Positions 30,409 to 39,131 of a stretch of 64,000 nt of DNA are shown in pieces; the stretch's first letter is position 1, and every line of letters begins with the position of its first letter. Below the pieces are notes generated by a model. It made no database searches, was not told the DNA's origin, and saw nothing but the letters and a program-made list of their open reading frames with translations. This stretch comes from an uncultured delta proteobacterium (GTDB lineage Bacteria; Desulfobacterota; Desulfobacteria; Desulfobacterales; B30-G6): assembly GCA_963744665.1 (NCBI GenBank), contig CAVUUM010000026.1, positions 97,270 through 161,269 on the forward strand. The letters are read 5' to 3'. Position numbers and translations under genes: made by a program.

Positions 30409-31458
30409 ATGGACATGAAAAGGGATTACTATGAGGATGTACAGTTCTTTACATCCGGTGCCATCGCCTTCTGGCTGAGTATTCTGGTTATCGGACTCGC
30501 CCTCTTCCCGTTTGTCGCCAGGAATTATTATGTGTATGTGGCCAACTACATGGCCATCAATGTCATCGTTGTCATCGGTCTCAACCTTCTGGTGGGCTAC
30601 ACCGGGCAGATATCCATGGGGCATGCCGGTTTTTTTGCCATTGGCGCCTATGGCACCGTTGCTCTGATGACCCACGCGCACTTTCCTTTTCTGCTGGCCC
30701 TGCCCACGGCTGGACTTATTGCCGCAGGTTTCGGCTTTCTGCTGGGTCTACCGGCCCTGCGGCTGGAAGGACCCTATCTTGCCATCGCCACCCTCGGATT
30801 CGGCATTACCATCACCCAGATTATCGGCAAAATCAAAATTCTGGGAGAACGTCAGGGTTTGCACGCGCCGGAACTGACCATCGGCCCCTGGCATTTGAGC
30901 ACCGACAAGGATTTTTACTTTCTTTTGATTCCCATCACCATCCTTCTGGCGGTCCTGGCCCGCAATCTTGTCCACACAAAAGTCGGCCGGGCCTTTATCG
31001 CCATCCGTGACGCCGATATCGCCGCTGAAACCATGGGGGTCAACCTGACACTGTATAAAACCCTGGCCTTTGCCGTCAGCGCTTTTTATGCAGGGGTGGG
31101 CGGCGGGCTGTATGCCTTTGTGCTGCGATTTATCGAGCCAGAACTGTTCAGCCTTTTCATGTCCGTCATGTTTCTGACAATGGCGGTGGTGGGGGGTCTC
31201 GGCTCCATGATGGGACCGGTCGCCGGGGCCTGCCTGCTCGGTTTTCTTGATCTGCAACTTCGAAATATCCTTGAACTTCCTTATATAGGACAGTGGATAA
31301 AAGCCCTGTCGGAAAGCTATTTTACCCTAACCGGCGTTTCCAACATTCAAATGATAGTATTCGGATCGATCCTGGTCGCAATCATGCTTTTTGAACCCCT
31401 GGGCATCTACGGTATCTGGATACGAACCAAGAAATACTGGAAGATGTGGCCATTCTAA
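30409..31458 (+). CDS. Branched-chain-amino-acid-type ABC transporter permease (LivM-like)
   Basis: 349-aa polytopic ORF with LLVGYTGQISMGHAGFFAIGAY. Confidence 0.8.
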   Translation: MDMKRDYYEDVQFFTSGAIAFWLSILVIGLALFPFVARNYYVYVANYMAINVIVVIGLNLLVGYTGQISMGHAGFFAIGAYGTVALMTHAHFPFLLALPTAGLIAAGFGFLLGLPALRLEGPYLAIATLGFGITITQIIGKIKILGERQGLHAPELTIGPWHLSTDKDFYFLLIPITILLAVLARNLVHTKVGRAFIAIRDADIAAETMGVNLTLYKTLAFAVSAFYAGVGGGLYAFVLRFIEPELFSLFMSVMFLTMAVVGGLGSMMGPVAGACLLGFLDLQLRNILELPYIGQWIKALSESYFTLTGVSNIQMIVFGSILVAIMLFEPLGIYGIWIRTKKYWKMWPF

Positions 31459-31519
31459 AAATCGAAGAACAACTTTTTAGAATAGAACGCGGCTTCGCCG
31501 CTATTTTAAGAGGAATTAA

Positions 31520-32395
31520 ATGGTTGATTTTCTACAGATGGTGCTCAGCGGTATTGCCGTGGGCAGTTCCTATGCGCTCATGGGGCTCGGGATGGTTCTG
31601 ATCTACAAGGCCTCCGAGGTCCCCAATTTTGTTCAGGGCGAAATGGCGCTTCTGCCGGTCTTTATCACCTATATGCTACTCAGCTCTTATGGACTTCCCT
31701 ATTACATTGCCTTTCCCGCGACACTTATATTTGCATTTATCCTGGGCTGCATTCTGGAATTTGCCGTGCTCCGGCGGGCCAAGGAACCGAATGTCCTGGG
31801 TCTGATCATCATCACCATCGGTCTTGAAATGCTGCTGATCGGGTTTGTCTCCTGGAAATTCGGTGCCGAACAACACGTCATGCCCTTTCCCATCTCCACT
31901 TACGACGCCATCATTCTTGGCGATATTTTTATCAGTACCCTGGATATGCTGACCCTGGTGGTGGCCCTGATCATTATGCTGATCCTGTTTCTCTTTTTCA
32001 GGTTCTCCAAAATCGGCGTGGCCATGAAAGCCACCCAGCAAAACGAAAACGCAGCAGCCTTGATGGGCATCAAGACCCACCAGATCCGCATGATCACCTG
32101 GGGCATATCGGCTGTGGTTGGCAGTGTGGCCGGTCTGTTGATTGCGCCAGTCCTGATGCAACCCTATATGATGTGGGACCCCATGCTCAAGGGATTCGCC
32201 GGTGCCGTGGTGGGAGGCATGACCTCCTTGCCCGGAGCCGTTTTCGGCGCCTATATCGTGGGTGTGGTGGAACACCTTTTCGGTGGCTACGTATCCATCG
32301 AATTCAAATCCGTTGTAGCGTTTGTGGTTATAGTCCTGGTACTGTGCTTCAAACCGAGTGGCTTGTTTGCCAGGCATTATGTAAAGAAAGTATAA
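31520..32395 (+). CDS. Branched-chain-amino-acid-type ABC transporter permease (LivH-like)
   Basis: 291-aa polytopic ORF with SGIAVGSSYALMGLGMVLIY...NFVQGEM. Confidence 0.8.
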   Translation: MVDFLQMVLSGIAVGSSYALMGLGMVLIYKASEVPNFVQGEMALLPVFITYMLLSSYGLPYYIAFPATLIFAFILGCILEFAVLRRAKEPNVLGLIIITIGLEMLLIGFVSWKFGAEQHVMPFPISTYDAIILGDIFISTLDMLTLVVALIIMLILFLFFRFSKIGVAMKATQQNENAAALMGIKTHQIRMITWGISAVVGSVAGLLIAPVLMQPYMMWDPMLKGFAGAVVGGMTSLPGAVFGAYIVGVVEHLFGGYVSIEFKSVVAFVVIVLVLCFKPSGLFARHYVKKV

Positions 32396-32589
32396 CCTAG
32401 ATGAGCGTTTCAAATTTTAAGAATAACGGCAACCTCGACAATCGCTCAACTTAGGTGTAAACTAGTGTTTAGTTTTTTGTGTTTGGTCAGATTGACGAGA
32501 TACCATGCCAAACACCAAATACAACATACTAAACACAAAACACAAAACACGATACACCAAACACCAAATAACAAAAAAGGAGAAGAAGA

Positions 32590-33837
32590 ATGAAAAAGAA
32601 TCTTTTAAGCGTTTTTGCTGTGATGGTGGTGATGCTATTTGGTCTGACCTTGACGACCTCGGCCGAAGAAGGTGTAACCGATACCGAGATCCACGTGGGC
32701 CAATGGGGCCCCCAAACCGGACCGGCAGCTCCCTGGGGTTCCGTGGCCCGTGGTACGGATGCTTACTTTAAAATGATCAATGCCGAAGGGGGCATCCATG
32801 GCCGTAAACTGGTGCACCATTACTTTGACGATGGCTACAATCCCGCCAAAACCAAGGCCGGCGTCAAACAACTCCAGGAAGAAGTTGGTATGTTTGCCTG
32901 GGTGGTTGGTGTGGGCACGGCTCCCGGCCTGGCGGTTAAAGACTATCTCATGGAGCGTAAGATCCCCTGGGTGGGTCCGGCGGCTGCATCGCGTCATTGG
33001 GTTGAACCGCCCAACAAGTATCTTTTCAACGACTATCCGCTCTACCTTGGCGATGCCCAGGTGCTGTGCCAGTACGCTGTTGGCACATTGAAATTTAAAC
33101 GCATCGCCATCGCCTACCAGAACGATGATTATGGCAAACAGGGGCTGGAAGGGGCTGAGAAGCAACTGGCCAAATATGGCATGGAACTGGTGGAAGCCAT
33201 TCCGGTCAACCTATCCGATACCGACATGAAACCGCACATCATGAAATTCCGCAAGGCCGAGGCCGAGGCGGTTCTCTTGTTTGTTAGCCCAGGCCATGTG
33301 GCCCGTTTGCAGGGCACCGGCAAGGCCATGGAGTTTACACCCCAGTGGATGAGCACCAGCACCTGTAGCGACGTGCCCCTGATGATGCACATCACCAAAG
33401 GCGGTTTTGCCGGCACCATTTTTGCTGGCTTGGCAGCGTCAAGTACTAAGCTGGAAATAGGGAGTATCGACGATTTGAACAACCCGACCCATCCGCTGCT
33501 GAAAAAATACTACAACGATGCCTATAAAAAATTTGCGGCCAAGGAAGAGCGCTGGGGTGTTTTCTTCATCGCCGGTTTCACCTTTGCGGAGCCTTTTGTG
33601 GAGGGCTTGAAGCGCTGTGGCCGCGATCTGACCCGTGAAAAACTGGTGGCTGAAATGGAAAAACTCCAAAATTTCCGTGGCACTGCTGGACCGGTCAGCT
33701 ATGCGCCCTTTGATCCCAATGATCCTATGTGCCGTCTGGGAGCCTCTGCAGTTTTTCTGGGCCAGGCAACCGCCGAGGCTAAAACCAAAATCCTGACATA
33801 CTGGACGCCGACGGATTATATCCCCATGAGCAAATAA
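32590..33837 (+). CDS. ABC transporter periplasmic substrate-binding protein (LivK / Peripla_BP_6-like)
   Basis: 415-aa ORF with a signal peptide and a type I PBP-like sequence. It sits inside the liv-type operon. Confidence 0.8.
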   Translation: MKKNLLSVFAVMVVMLFGLTLTTSAEEGVTDTEIHVGQWGPQTGPAAPWGSVARGTDAYFKMINAEGGIHGRKLVHHYFDDGYNPAKTKAGVKQLQEEVGMFAWVVGVGTAPGLAVKDYLMERKIPWVGPAAASRHWVEPPNKYLFNDYPLYLGDAQVLCQYAVGTLKFKRIAIAYQNDDYGKQGLEGAEKQLAKYGMELVEAIPVNLSDTDMKPHIMKFRKAEAEAVLLFVSPGHVARLQGTGKAMEFTPQWMSTSTCSDVPLMMHITKGGFAGTIFAGLAASSTKLEIGSIDDLNNPTHPLLKKYYNDAYKKFAAKEERWGVFFIAGFTFAEPFVEGLKRCGRDLTREKLVAEMEKLQNFRGTAGPVSYAPFDPNDPMCRLGASAVFLGQATAEAKTKILTYWTPTDYIPMSK

Positions 33838-33842
33838 ATCAC

Positions 33843-33880
33843 ACTGTCGGCCGTGATGTTAATAAGCATCACGGCCGACA
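33843..33880 (+). other. Perfect 15-bp intercistronic hairpin (no U-tract)
   Basis: ctgtcggccgtgatg (33843..33857), an 8-nt loop, then catcacggccgacag (33866..33880). It starts 6 nt after the binding-protein stop codon. Confidence 0.7.
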
Positions 33881-33911
33881 GTATAGAATAACCATTTAGG
33901 ATACAAATTGT

Positions 33912-34700
33912 ATGTCTTTTTTTGAGGTAAAAAATTTGTCCATCAGCTTTGGTGGTCTCAAAGCATTGGACGACATCTCCTTTGGGGTCAAAAAGGGCGA
34001 GATCTACGCTATTATCGGTCCCAATGGTGCTGGAAAAACCACCCTGTTCAACTGCATCAATGGAATCTACAAACCCAACAAGGGTCAGATCCTTTTCAAA
34101 GACCGCAAGATTCGGGGCAAAAAACCGGACAAAGTCGCCAGGATGGGTATTGCCCGGACATTCCAGAACATCGAGCTCTTCAACAACATGAACGCCATGG
34201 AAAATATCATGATCGGCCGGCATCTGCATATGAAAACCGGTCTGTTCAGAGGCGCCTTTCTATGGGGAAAAAATTCCTTTGCAGGTAAAGAGGAAACGTC
34301 TCATCGCAAAAAAGTGGAAGAAATCATCGATCTCCTGGATCTTCAGTCGGCCCGCAACAAATTTGTGGGTGGTCTGCCCTACGGCACCCAGAAGCAGATC
34401 GAACTGGCCAGGGCTCTGGCACTGGAACCGGAGCTGCTTCTCCTGGACGAACCCTGTGCCGGCATGAATGCCGAAGAAAAGCAGGACATGATCTTCTGGG
34501 TCAAGGATATCCAGGATGAGCTGGGCATCACCATCTTGCTCATCGAACACGACATGACCATGGTCATGGACATTTCAGACCGTATCCTGGCCATAAATTT
34601 CGGAAAAACCATTACCGAGGGATCGCCGCAAGAGGTTCAGAAACATCCTGAAGTATTGCGAGCCTATTTAGGAGAAGACGACGGTGAGTGCGCTGCTTGA
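33912..34700 (+). CDS. ABC transporter ATP-binding protein (LivG-like)
   Basis: 262-aa ORF with Walker A GPNGAGKTT, signature LPYGTQKQIE and Walker B LLLLDEP. Confidence 0.85.
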   Translation: MSFFEVKNLSISFGGLKALDDISFGVKKGEIYAIIGPNGAGKTTLFNCINGIYKPNKGQILFKDRKIRGKKPDKVARMGIARTFQNIELFNNMNAMENIMIGRHLHMKTGLFRGAFLWGKNSFAGKEETSHRKKVEEIIDLLDLQSARNKFVGGLPYGTQKQIELARALALEPELLLLDEPCAGMNAEEKQDMIFWVKDIQDELGITILLIEHDMTMVMDISDRILAINFGKTITEGSPQEVQKHPEVLRAYLGEDDGECAA

Positions 34701-35460
34701 AATAAAGAATATTGAAACCTATTACGATCTGATTTATGCCATCCGGGGCGCATCCCTCACCGTTGAGGAAGGCAGCATTACCGCCATTCTGGGGAATAAC
34801 GGCGCCGGGAAATCCACGATCCTGAAGACGGTCATGGGTCTCATCGAAGACCAGCCGGACAAGGGCACCATCGAATTCATGGGCAAACGCATCGACGGCC
34901 TGGACACGGACAAGATCGTCCGCATGGGAATCACCCTGGTACCGGAAGGCCGGGAAGTGTTTGAGGAGCTCACGATCCGGGAAAATCTTCTCATGGGAGC
35001 CTACATCCGCAACGACAAAAATGAAATCGACCAGGATTTTGACAGGGTGTTTAACTACTTTCCCATTTTGAAGGAGCGTGTGAACCAGTGGGCCGGAACC
35101 CTCTCCGGCGGTGAACAGCAGATGCTGGCCATTGGCCGCGCCCTCATGAGCCGACCAAAGCTTCTCTTTCTGGATGAACCGTCTTTGGGTCTCTCCCCTA
35201 TCCTGGTCAAGGATATCTTTGATATTATCAAAACCATCAACATCGAGGGAGTCACGATCCTCCTGGTGGAGCAGAATGCCCGTATGGCTCTGGGCGTTTC
35301 GAAAACCGGGCTGATCATCGAAAACGGCCGCTTTGTCATGAAAGGCAATGCCTGCGACTTGATGGAAGACAAAGACGTCAAGGAGTTTTACATGGGCGTT
35401 AAATCGGAGGCTTCCGTCAAAGGGTATCAACGCTGGAAACGTAAGAAGGCATGGCGATAA
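34684..35460 (+). CDS. ABC transporter ATP-binding protein (LivF-like)
   Basis: 258-aa ORF with GNNGAGKST, LSGGEQQML and LLFLDEPS. Confidence 0.85.
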   Translation: MSALLEIKNIETYYDLIYAIRGASLTVEEGSITAILGNNGAGKSTILKTVMGLIEDQPDKGTIEFMGKRIDGLDTDKIVRMGITLVPEGREVFEELTIRENLLMGAYIRNDKNEIDQDFDRVFNYFPILKERVNQWAGTLSGGEQQMLAIGRALMSRPKLLFLDEPSLGLSPILVKDIFDIIKTINIEGVTILLVEQNARMALGVSKTGLIIENGRFVMKGNACDLMEDKDVKEFYMGVKSEASVKGYQRWKRKKAWR

Positions 35461-35635
35461 ATTTGCTGCGCAAATTTATATGACGCGGCTGCGCCGCTAT
35501 GGTGCGTTGGGATGTTGATTGGGTTGATAGGGTTCTTTGCTTTTACACCCTATCCGAAACAACAACATTGCAGCACATGCCTCACATAACACCAAACACC
35601 AAACACCAAACACGAAATACTAAACACTAAACACA

Positions 35636-37465
35636 ATGAACACAACAAACCCAATGAACTCAATCAACACCGAAGCTCAGACCGTACCGGCCGCATTTTT
35701 GACGGCTGTAAAAAATTGGGGTTCCCGAACTGCCATGCGTAAGAAGGAATTCGGACTCTGGCATGACATCAGCTGGAACGAATATTATGAAAATGTAAAG
35801 AATATTGCCTGCGCGCTGATGGCCCTGGGTCTCAAAAAAGGCGACTGTGCCGCCATTATCGGTGACAACAGCCCGGAATGGGTCTATGCCAGTGTCGGTA
35901 TTCAGTGCTGTGGCGCCGGGGCTGCCGGTGTTTACGCCACCAATGCCTGGCAGCAGGTGAAATATGTGGTATCCAATGCCGACGCCAAATTTCTCTTTGT
36001 CGAAAATGAAGAACAGCTGGACAAGTGGCTGCATTTTCGAGACAACGTGCCCGATTTAAAGAAGGTCATTGTCTGGGACACCGAAGGCCTGCGCCACTTT
36101 GACGATCCCATGGTCATGTCATTCGATGACCTGATGGCGTTGGGAGAAAAGGCCGCCCAGGAAAAACCGGACATGTTTCAAACCAGAATCAACCAGATCG
36201 ATCCCGAAGATCTGTCCGTCCTCATCTATACATCCGGGACCACCGGTCCTCCCAAGGGGGCCATGCTGTCACATCGCAACTGCGTCTGGATGGGAGGTGC
36301 CCTTACATCCAATAACCCTATGTTTGACGACGACGCCATTATGTCATTTCTACCCCTGTGTCATATTTTTGAACAGCTCTTTACCATTCTGGCTCACTTC
36401 CAGGTGGGTCATAAGGTCAATTTTATCGAGAGACCGGATACGGTCGTGGACAACATGATCGAAATTTCCCCCACCGTTGCACACGCGGTACCGCGAATAT
36501 GGGAAAAGTACTACTCCGCCATCATGATCCGCATGTCCGATGCCACCTGGTTCAAACGGCTTGTATTCGGGACTGCCATGAAAGTCGGTAAGAAACACGC
36601 CACCCTGGAAATGAATTTTGAACCGATTCCACTCTCTGTTAAATTTTTATTTGGGCTGGCTCACTTTGCCGTGTTCCGAAAACTCAAAGAACGCATGGGT
36701 TTCGACCGGATTCGAGTCGCCTACTCCGGTGCTGCCCCCATAGCGCCGGAAATCCTCCATTTTTTTCATGCCATCGGTGTGAACCTTGTGGAAGGCTATG
36801 GCCAGACCGAGGGTACCGGGGTCACCACCACTTCCGAAATCGGACACGTTAAATTTGGATCGGTGGGCATACCCCTGAAAGGGGTTGAAATCAAACTCGC
36901 CGATGACGGAGAAATACTCGTCAAATCACCGGGTGTGTTCATGGGCTATTTCAAGAACCCGGAAGCCACCGCTGAAACCATCGTGGATGGCTGGCTCCAT
37001 TCCGGAGACGTGGGGACCATTGACGAGGACGGGTTCCTGACCATCACGGACCGTAAAAAAGATATCATTGTCACGGCGGGTGGAAAGAATATTACCCCGC
37101 AGTATATCGAGAACAAACTCAAGGCGAGTCTCTATATCAACGATGCCGTGGTTATTGGAGACCGGCGCAAGTTCCTGTCCTGCCTGATTATCATCGATGA
37201 AGACAATGTCGTCAAGTTCGCCCAGGACCAGAAAGTTCAGTTTTCCACCTACAAGGATCTTACCCAGCACGAAGAGATCAACAAACTTATCGAAGGCGAA
37301 ATCAAGGCCGTCAATGAGTCTTTGTCCCGGGTGGAACAGGTCAAAAAGTTCACCATCCTGCCGAAAAAACTCTATGAAGAGGATGGTGAAGTTACCCCCA
37401 CCATGAAGGTCAAACGCAGTTTTATCAACAAAGCCTTTGGCGATCTCATCGAAGCCATGTACTAA
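35636..37465 (+). CDS. AMP-forming long-chain acyl-CoA synthetase
   Basis: 609-aa ORF with IYTSGTTGPPKGAMLSH, GYGQTE and GWLHSGD. Confidence 0.85.
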   Translation: MNTTNPMNSINTEAQTVPAAFLTAVKNWGSRTAMRKKEFGLWHDISWNEYYENVKNIACALMALGLKKGDCAAIIGDNSPEWVYASVGIQCCGAGAAGVYATNAWQQVKYVVSNADAKFLFVENEEQLDKWLHFRDNVPDLKKVIVWDTEGLRHFDDPMVMSFDDLMALGEKAAQEKPDMFQTRINQIDPEDLSVLIYTSGTTGPPKGAMLSHRNCVWMGGALTSNNPMFDDDAIMSFLPLCHIFEQLFTILAHFQVGHKVNFIERPDTVVDNMIEISPTVAHAVPRIWEKYYSAIMIRMSDATWFKRLVFGTAMKVGKKHATLEMNFEPIPLSVKFLFGLAHFAVFRKLKERMGFDRIRVAYSGAAPIAPEILHFFHAIGVNLVEGYGQTEGTGVTTTSEIGHVKFGSVGIPLKGVEIKLADDGEILVKSPGVFMGYFKNPEATAETIVDGWLHSGDVGTIDEDGFLTITDRKKDIIVTAGGKNITPQYIENKLKASLYINDAVVIGDRRKFLSCLIIIDEDNVVKFAQDQKVQFSTYKDLTQHEEINKLIEGEIKAVNESLSRVEQVKKFTILPKKLYEEDGEVTPTMKVKRSFINKAFGDLIEAMY

Positions 37466-37538
37466 TCCGGATTTTCCAGGTCCTGAAAAATCCGGATATG
37501 GATTACAATCTGAAACACAACTTTAGGGAGGTGCCATT

Positions 37539-38012
37539 ATGACCGTTGCCTATACCAGTTACCTGACAATAAAGAAGCACGCCGGGGCGCATCGAACAGC
37601 CCGTTTGAAAAACTTTGATGAGCCCATAAACTTTGGTATCCACGGCGGCATCAAGGATTTTTATCAGGAAAAGTACGGACGAAAACTTGAAGGACCGGAA
37701 TACCCGGCAACCCTCGACCATGTCGTTGCCGGCGTTGCCGGCTGACTGACGGGAACCCTTGCCGGTGCGCTGGATGCGCGCGGAATATCAGCAACTGAAA
37801 ATCTGGTGGCCCATGTCGAAGGCGATGTAGATGCTGTTGACGGAGTCCTGAGAATTACGAAGATACGAATAAAATATCAATTCGAGGCCCCCAAAGACCT
37901 TCTACAAAAGGCGGAAAGGGCCCTTCAGGTCTATGCGGACCTGTGTCCTGCCTACCAGTCCGTGAAGAATGGCATCGATTGCTCCTGGGATGCAGACATC
38001 GAGACAGTTTAA
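37539..38012 (+). CDS. OsmC/Ohr-family peroxiredoxin-like protein with in-frame UGA (candidate selenocysteine) at 37743..37745
   Basis: ORFs 37539..37745 and 37806..38012 share one frame. I read the gap without a further stop as ...LDHVVAGVAG-U-LTGTLAGALDARGISATENLVAHVEGDVD. The UGA falls where the OsmC family has its conserved Cys (A-x-C). The second family Cys is present (YADLCPAY). A hairpin lies 16 nt downstream, at 37762..37783. Confidence 0.65.
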
Positions 38013-38200
38013 CCTAAGTTGAGCGATTGCCGATCTTACCGCACCTACGGCGTCAGATGCCATACCGCATAGTTCACTATAGCAGAACAGCATCTTCCTT
38101 GTAGCAACGGCAACCTCGACAATCGTTTGACCTAAATATTTCATAATAATTTTCTAATCATCAGGAGCGTGATATATTCGGGTCAGGTTGGATATTTCAT

Positions 38201-38302: not shown

Positions 38303-38581
38303 CTAGTTGATTCGGTCCCGCAGTTTACCTGAGCACTTAAAGGTCACAACTCTCCGCGGCGCCAGCATCAGATCGTCTCCGGTAGCGGGGTTCCGGCCTT
38401 TTCTCTCATTTTTATCACGGATACAAAACTTGCCGAATCCGCTGATGAGAACATCTTCGCCGGACTGAAGCGTACTTTTGATAATCTCTATGAGTGTTTC
38501 AATGATATCCGTACTCTGCTGCTTGGTTAAACCTTCATCGGCTTGAACCGTATTGATAATATCCGCTTTTGTAAGTGCCAT
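38303..38581 (-). CDS. Integration host factor / HU-family DNA-binding protein (IHF-alpha-like)
   Basis: 92-aa ORF with GFGKFCIRDKNERKGRNPATGDDLMLAPRRVVTFK. It ends in TAG. Confidence 0.85.
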   Translation of the reverse strand: MALTKADIINTVQADEGLTKQQSTDIIETLIEIIKSTLQSGEDVLISGFGKFCIRDKNERKGRNPATGDDLMLAPRRVVTFKCSGKLRDRIN

Positions 38582-38813: not shown

Positions 38814-39131
38814 ATGGGTAAAAACCCCGAAAAAACAGGATCAAAAGATCGTAGACGTCATCCCCGTCAACCGTGTTCGCTAAAGGTCGGTTATGCAACC
38901 ATGGATCTCAGCTTCATCGACTTTATTACGGATATTAACTGCTGGGGTGTCTTTATTCAATCGGATAAAAAAGTCCCTGTCGGTGAATCGGTTAGTATGA
39001 CCATCCCCCTCCATGGGGAAGAACAATCCATCAAAGTCATCGGAGAAGTTATGTGGTCCAGCCCTCAGGGAATGGGCATCAAATTCAATATGGGCGTCAA
39101 TACTTCCGTTCTGAGCACACTGCTTGATTGA
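38814..39131 (+). CDS. PilZ-domain protein
   Basis: 105-aa ORF with RRHPRQP...DINCWGVFI (RxxxR and D/NxSxxG-like motifs). Confidence 0.55.
   Translation: MGKNPEKTGSKDRRRHPRQPCSLKVGYATMDLSFIDFITDINCWGVFIQSDKKVPVGESVSMTIPLHGEEQSIKVIGEVMWSSPQGMGIKFNMGVNTSVLSTLLD

Follow-up and report, generated by a model that had tools for sequence, protein, structure and literature searches.

Gene structure and reading frame

On the + strand of the window (the whole 64,000-nucleotide stretch of DNA analysed here), an OsmC-fold gene of 157 codons occupies positions 37539..38012. The gene opens with an ATG at 37539, closes with a TAA at 38010..38012 and contains a single in-frame TGA, codon 69, at 37743..37745. 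Inspection of the sequence places a Shine-Dalgarno-like AGGGAGG (37525..37531, +) 7 nt upstream of the ATG. Gene callers break this gene into two short open reading frames, 37539..37745 and 37806..38012, and translation confirms the preliminary description of this DNA, according to which the two are in frame across the TGA and read ...VAGVAG-U-LTGTLAG.... The read-through product has 157 residues (...DHVVAGVAG-U-LTGTLAGALDARG...LCPAYQSVKNGIDCSW...), and the peptide spanning the UGA codon is VAGVAG-U-LTGTLAGALDAR. The Pfam OsmC model (PF02566) matches this product with a score of 50.1 bits (cut-off 27.5), and as the match, residues 56-149, extends to either side of the TGA, neither open reading frame is a full domain, in keeping with the earlier statement that neither half would be a complete OsmC fold. 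The second family Cys, placed downstream in LCPAY by the same description, is found there as C136 (37944..37946). A split gene encoding two subunits was also considered as a reading and rejected.

Upstream, a run of same-strand open reading frames (30409..37465, +) includes an ABC-ATPase-like protein and ends with a 609-residue AMP-binding acyl-CoA synthetase. Downstream lie an HU/IHF-type DNA-binding protein (38303..38581, -) and a small PilZ-domain protein (38814..39131, +). Beyond close relatives, none of these neighbours is conserved beside the OsmC-like gene: clustering of the flanking open reading frames returned only spurious antisense frames and synteny limited to 5-8 close relatives, with no conserved operon partner. 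A scan for promoters and terminators around the gene stayed at the level of shuffled sequence. A perfect 11-bp inverted repeat, ATCCGGATTTT ... AAAATCCGGAT, with an 11-nt loop (37465..37497) overlaps the stop codon of the upstream acyl-CoA synthetase; because no T-run follows, it is not a canonical intrinsic terminator. Chance-level Rfam matches to miRNA families coincide with this repeat.

Conservation of the UGA codon

With one genome scanned per species, relatives of the gene turned up in 268 genomes, and the best 80 loci were examined together with 3 metagenome loci. One locus (L026) was not caught by the motif pattern; the TGA is present at the aligned codon in 82 of 82 loci, at 55-97% identity. 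By their labels, Planctomycetota supply 35 of the examined loci and Thermodesulfobacteriota 20, with about 11 more in unplaced “delta proteobacterium” MAGs; Myxococcota account for 7, MAGs labelled Pseudomonadota for 4 and Acidobacteriota for 2. Among the loci examined the TGA form is carried by at least five phyla. Three loci (L057, L061, L074) are labelled “uncultured Alcaligenaceae bacterium”, which is unexpected for a gene centred on Planctomycetota and Desulfobacterota; these could reflect a mislabelled MAG or horizontal transfer.

An even draw of 401 genomes from the window's own phylum gives the same picture. The homolog is found in 47 of these genomes, and of the 51 matches 50 have a single TGA. 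The sole match without a stop (L099, G180:C23:41387-42215) has TGC (Cys) at the Sec position. A search of its genome, which is 98% complete, did not find selB, and L099 has no predicted hairpin. This single case would fit a Sec-to-Cys reversion following loss of the Sec trait.

Protein databases hold the gene in altered forms. A word-indexed protein search returned full-length 157-residue relatives with “W” at position 69, along with many halves of 68-90 residues; the “W” is the TGA as read by a gene caller under a TGA=Trp table. A HMMER search of 1.84 billion representatives gave 333 matches, many of which stop at query residue 68 or begin at residue 70-71. The split calls and the many deposited halves are what a pseudogene, or an assembly or sequencing error producing a TGA in a Cys-type OsmC gene, would leave behind, and this reading is in effect refuted and of negligible probability, given the same TGA in every one of the 82 independent assemblies across phyla and in 50 of 51 phylum-sample matches, an intact frame on either side of it, and purifying selection on both halves, with R19, H35, K45, E54, R81 and C136 invariant.

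More distant homologs identify the residue that the codon replaces. In 39 of 48 distant full-length homologs (24-47% identity) the U69 column holds Cys, as it does in the Cys-form homologs P0015 and P0033, and the C136 column is Cys in 44 of the 49 sequences in the distant-homolog alignment. The profile of these homologs aligns U69 with the first Cys of the OsmC structures 1ukk (T. thermophilus) and 1qwi (E. coli), in AHAGCFS and AHAACFS respectively, and C136 with the CPV Cys of both. In OsmC/Ohr proteins we take the first Cys to be peroxidatic and the second resolving, and U69 and C136 occupy these positions. Failure of the UGA to align with a conserved Cys had been named beforehand as an observation that would count against a selenoprotein; the alignment with the family Cys instead holds.

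The hairpin downstream of the UGA

A hairpin follows the UGA within the coding sequence. Its stem, CCGGUGCGC/GCGCGCGG, lies at 37762..37783 (+), starts 16 nt past the UGA and closes on the loop UGGAU, exactly where the preliminary description had placed it. Within this stem, a core of 6 bp pairs 37765..37770 with 37776..37781 around the loop at 37771..37775 (core 37765..37781, +), and the apical loop begins 25 nt after the UGA. The 17-nt core has an MFE of -9.5 kcal/mol (z = -2.7); with the outer extension, CC...GG with a bulged G, the MFE is -11.4 kcal/mol. The single-sequence fold of 58 nt of the window is not significant (z = -1.17), and an Rfam scan of 37400..38200 (E up to 10) brought up no SECIS family, its only matches being to miRNA and cis-regulatory families at chance level. 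It is the comparative evidence that sets the hairpin above chance, since the fold on its own is not significant.

That evidence comes from an alignment of 78 distinct orthologous 60-nt segments, gap-free from the UGA. RNAalifold finds exactly one helix in it, columns 23-28 with 34-39, which corresponds to 37765..37770 with 37776..37781 in the window. Paired cells make up 97.9%; column shuffles give 88.5%, and not one of 500 is as high as the real alignment. Sliding the 3' partners by 1-3 columns lowers pairing to 14-66%. The SECIS-like hairpin proposed earlier thus stands for its inner 6 bp, which alone are conserved and covary across the 78 orthologs; it does not stand for the full 9/8-nt stem, whose outer CC/GG pairs are specific to the window and its nearest relatives.

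Two pairs switch between alternatives across the 78 sequences. Pair 27-35 is A-U in 38, G-C in 37, G-U in 2 and an A-C mismatch in 1, and is therefore paired in 77 of 78. Pair 23-39 is C-G in 51, G-C in 14, G-U in 5, U-G in 1 and other in 7. The synonymous third base of an Ala codon (GCR) falls in column 27 and a second codon position (Ala/Val) in column 35, so that RNA pairing couples a silent site to a residue change. When the hairpin codons are left out in building the gene tree, columns 27 and 35 change about 16 and 15 times on it. Both columns switch together in all five well-supported independent contrasts; the sign test gives p = 0.06 because the contrasts are few (n = 5).

The hairpin could also be a by-product of coding constraint on the peptide A-L-D-A/V-R rather than an RNA element, and its stem does lie wholly inside the conserved codons 76-81, in G+C-rich sequence. 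Synonymous third positions, however, are frozen only across the hairpin: Leu78 is CTG in 83 of 83 sequences, Ala76 GCC in 33 of 33 and Ala80 GCG in 41 of 41, and Ala77 is only GCG or GCA, whereas elsewhere in the gene Leu and Ala use 4-6 codons. The covariation of synonymous column 27 with non-synonymous column 35 likewise speaks against coding constraint, as does the Cys-form homolog P0015 (TGC), which has a similar peptide, AALERRG, and no hairpin at the equivalent place. A sister Sec clade, moreover, has a different hairpin at another offset. Coding constraint is thus a highly improbable source of the pairing, and the hairpin is under RNA-level selection.

The hairpin also agrees with the published bSECIS model, which describes an apical loop of 3-9 nt, an upper stem of 4-16 bp, a G in the first two loop positions, a UGA-to-loop distance of 16-37 nt and an MFE of at most -7.5 kcal/mol (PMC13188914, Fig. 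2 legend). Applied by hand, all four constraints of the model agree with the window hairpin, which has a loop of 5 nt, a stem of 6 bp, G-G at loop positions 2-3, a spacing of 25 nt and the core MFE given above.

Selenocysteine machinery and the genetic code

The genome from which the window comes (4.77-Mb assembly, 48.5% GC) encodes the machinery for Sec, the absence of which had been put forward as the other result that would tell against a selenoprotein. SelB scores 372.7 bits (cut-off 242), SelA 605 bits and SelD 371.4 bits, and a tRNA-SeC(tca) lies at C7:179057-179154. The selD gene, outside the window (G000:C2:36907-37830, -), is predicted to encode Sec itself: a TGA lies in frame at its canonical G-A-G-U-ASK site (VSGAG-U-ASKLAPG) and is followed by a hairpin of 5-6 bp with a GGA loop, CCAGG-GGA-CCUGG, which starts 18 nt from the first base of the selD UGA. 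With selD itself coded in this way, the organism already depends on Sec decoding. In the phylum, selB is found in 43 of 45 TGA carriers and in 42 of 46 sampled genomes that lack the OsmC-like gene; co-occurrence is uninformative here because selB is near-universal in the phylum. Four further carriers also have selB, namely the isolate Tautonia sp. JC769, a Pirellulaceae MAG, an Acidobacteria MAG and a deltaproteobacterial MAG.

The UGA could instead be read as a standard residue, either as Trp under a code of the 4/25 type or by near-cognate insertion of Cys or Trp, with the hairpin merely slowing termination. Some database entries do give W at this position, and near-cognate read-through of UGA occurs at a low level in bacteria. 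Against this, 421 of the 1260 open frames of 400 codons or more in the window genome finish with TGA; a codon that terminates a third of long frames serves as an ordinary stop, which excludes a code 4/25 reassignment. Distant homologs show Cys at the column and never a true Trp codon, the genome has full Sec machinery with a Sec-type selD, the hairpin fits the bSECIS model with its loop G, and the sole match without a stop uses TGC in a genome in which selB was not detected. Decoding as a standard residue is accordingly very unlikely.

The window gene is very probably a true selenoprotein gene, as the preliminary description had suggested; the Sec/Cys column, the conservation of the UGA, the hairpin and the Sec machinery together lend that suggestion strong support. 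From these sequence data we infer that selenium is incorporated at UGA-69. The reading as a whole, that of a single gene for a 157-residue OsmC-fold protein in which UGA-69 would be decoded as Sec by way of a SelB-bound hairpin and Sec69 would stand in the position of the peroxidatic Cys, is given a probability of about 0.88.

Fold, conserved residues and proposed mechanism

An AlphaFold2 model built from a 42-sequence alignment has a mean pLDDT of 92.5 and a pTM of 0.86. Its top Foldseek matches are all OsmC/Ohr structures (TM 0.6-0.84), and for 2onf the TM-score is 0.75 on query normalisation and 0.84 on target normalisation. As modelled, the window protein has the OsmC fold over its whole length. 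Sec69 lies near the N-terminal end of a long helix (58-80) in the model, and Cys136 lies between helices 119-135 and 137-142.

Several residues are invariant across the 83 orthologs: R19, H35, K45, E54, R81, C136, P137 and Y139. Cys136 (TGT, 37944..37946, +), in the CPAY motif and the presumed resolving Cys of the OsmC fold, is thus present in 83 of 83. Within the window's clade R19, E54, D60 and R81 are invariant, R19 and either E54 or D60 being candidates for the catalytic Arg and Glu of OsmC/Ohr proteins, and the clade has invariant N-terminal residues of its own (H14, H18, R19, H35, K45). Positions 145 and 148 (37971..37982) form a CxxC (GCIDCSW) in 63 of 83 orthologs and a GxxC in six, namely the window and its five closest relatives; Cys148 (37980..37982, +) is what remains in the window of this clade-specific C-terminal motif. 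In distant Cys-form homologs, position 148 is I, V or L. The C-terminal CxxC (orthologs L015-L094) may act as a redox relay peculiar to the clade or may serve as a metal site.

The cis and trans parts present suggest the steps of decoding, and homology suggests those of catalysis. SelB·GTP·Sec-tRNA(Sec) would bind the 6-bp UGGAU hairpin while the ribosome nears the UGA, and SelB would deliver Sec at the UGA in competition with release factor 2. The selenolate of Sec69 would then attack a hydroperoxide (ROOH), giving a selenenic acid. Cys136 would resolve this to a selenenylsulfide, which a thiol reductant would reduce, and in most relatives the C-terminal CxxC is a candidate relay.

Hydroperoxide reduction is, by a modest tilt of the balance, the favoured activity of the window protein; it is suggested by homology to characterised OsmC/Ohr proteins at 12-19% identity. 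A true selenoprotein with some other Sec-Cys chemistry, such as disulfide or persulfide reduction, transfer of S or Se, or handling of metals or metalloids, is a less probable but substantial possibility. Many uncharacterised OsmC/YhfA-like proteins may act in this way, and the window protein falls far below the cut-offs of both the TIGR03562 OsmC model (13.3 against 85.8 bits) and the TIGR03563 SACOL1771 peroxiredoxin model (17.7 against 166.15 bits). The invariant H14, H18, R19, H35 and K45 and the C-terminal CxxC are without counterpart in classical OsmC/Ohr proteins, and a conserved peroxide-stress neighbourhood was not found around the gene. Weighing the other way, both OsmC catalytic Cys positions are kept, the match to the OsmC/Ohr fold is whole-length, and Sec usually replaces a catalytic redox Cys in peroxidase-type enzymes (PMC1088965, PMC13188914).

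Significance

The kind of system is already known: OsmC-like proteins with Sec are established, as is SECIS decoding in bacteria, and no concept is changed by this gene. What is new is taxonomy and annotation, together with a SECIS difference between sister clades. Public records routinely split the gene into two fragments (“OsmC family” or “hypothetical”) or translate it with Trp. If the reading is true, hundreds of species have a selenoprotein that pipelines mis-annotate as two fragments, and recognising the clade would mend hundreds of records and raise the selenoproteome counts of Planctomycetota and Desulfobacterota. The two sister clades would also show, in nature, one SECIS hairpin giving way to another while the UGA stays in place. 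An OsmC-type enzyme with Sec in nearly all of its members would be well suited to the question of what advantage Sec has over Cys in the OsmC fold, and as the cultured Tautonia sp. JC769 carries both the gene and selB, the question is open to experiment.

Relation to known systems

“OsmC-like protein” has been a prokaryotic selenoprotein family since its description from the Sargasso Sea, with the motif UxxT (Zhang, Fomenko & Gladyshev 2005; PMC1088965). “OsmC-like” selenoproteins are also listed in PMC1976440, in the GOS set of 2008 (PMC2398784) and in a 2026 review (PMC13188914); three are mentioned in the Olavius symbiont paper (PMC1976440), and among the GOS sequences examined only the GF-U-LLT type occurs. 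The Sargasso sequence AACY01145085 (PMC1088965 supplement) reaches 157.4 bits with the NCBIfam model NF041052, “OsmC-related (seleno)protein”, and so belongs to that family. The same model gives the window protein 12.8 bits, below the cut-off of 95, and the U-L-T-G-T of this protein (Thr at +2 and +4, Gly at +3) departs from UxxT. On sequence comparison the window protein is a sister subfamily of NF041052 with predicted Sec at the same position, and not a member.

A sister clade to the window's own is seen in loci L100-L117 (genomes G227, G351, G147 and others), at 38-47% identity. These loci keep the in-frame TGA in the motif G-U-MMGTL. In most of the 18 (not in L116) a hairpin of the form CUGGCC-N4-6-GGCCRG is found at +15..+34 from the UGA, and its outer pair switches between C-G and U-A. 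The U-LTGT and U-MMGT clades have the Sec codon in common, and their predicted SECIS elements differ in sequence and offset. Somewhat better than an even case can be made that the gene represents a separate OsmC subfamily, distinct from the marine one of 2005, in which Sec is the usual state (about 98% of sampled loci, in at least five phyla) and the two clades display SECIS turnover. The traits of the proposed subfamily, which is without a curated model, are a length of about 157 residues, conserved N-terminal His, Arg and Lys, and usually a C-terminal CxxC.

Compared with the Sargasso OsmC-like family (NF041052), the window protein has the same OsmC fold (PF02566), predicted Sec at the first conserved Cys with U aligned to U, the second Cys kept and a bacterial-type SECIS hairpin just downstream, and both are known from sequence. 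The two proteins are nonetheless only 27% identical. The window motif is AG-U-LTGT whereas that of the Sargasso protein is GF-U-LLT (UxxT), and the lengths are 157 and about 137 residues. A C-terminal CxxC, which in the window itself is GxxC, sets the window clade apart. The SECIS hairpins differ as well, with a UGGAU loop on a GC stem in the window and GAAGCG-GUA-CGCUUC in the Sargasso sequence. Hosts of the window clade are Planctomycetota, Desulfobacterota and other phyla of anoxic habitats, whereas the Sargasso family comes from surface-ocean reads.

The OsmC/Ohr thiol peroxidases (among them E. coli OsmC 1qwi/1nye, T. thermophilus OsmC 1ukk and Ohr 1zb9/6ebc) match the window protein in fold over the whole length, and both catalytic Cys positions align; their first catalytic residue is Cys where the window has predicted Sec, and identity is 12-19%. 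The Sec-containing Prx of Eubacterium acidaminophilum (cited in PMC13188914) resembles the proposed enzyme in having Sec in place of the peroxidatic Cys, in being a thiol peroxidase of an anaerobe and in a decoding that needs a bSECIS and SelB, but it has a thioredoxin-like fold that is unrelated to the OsmC fold of the window protein.
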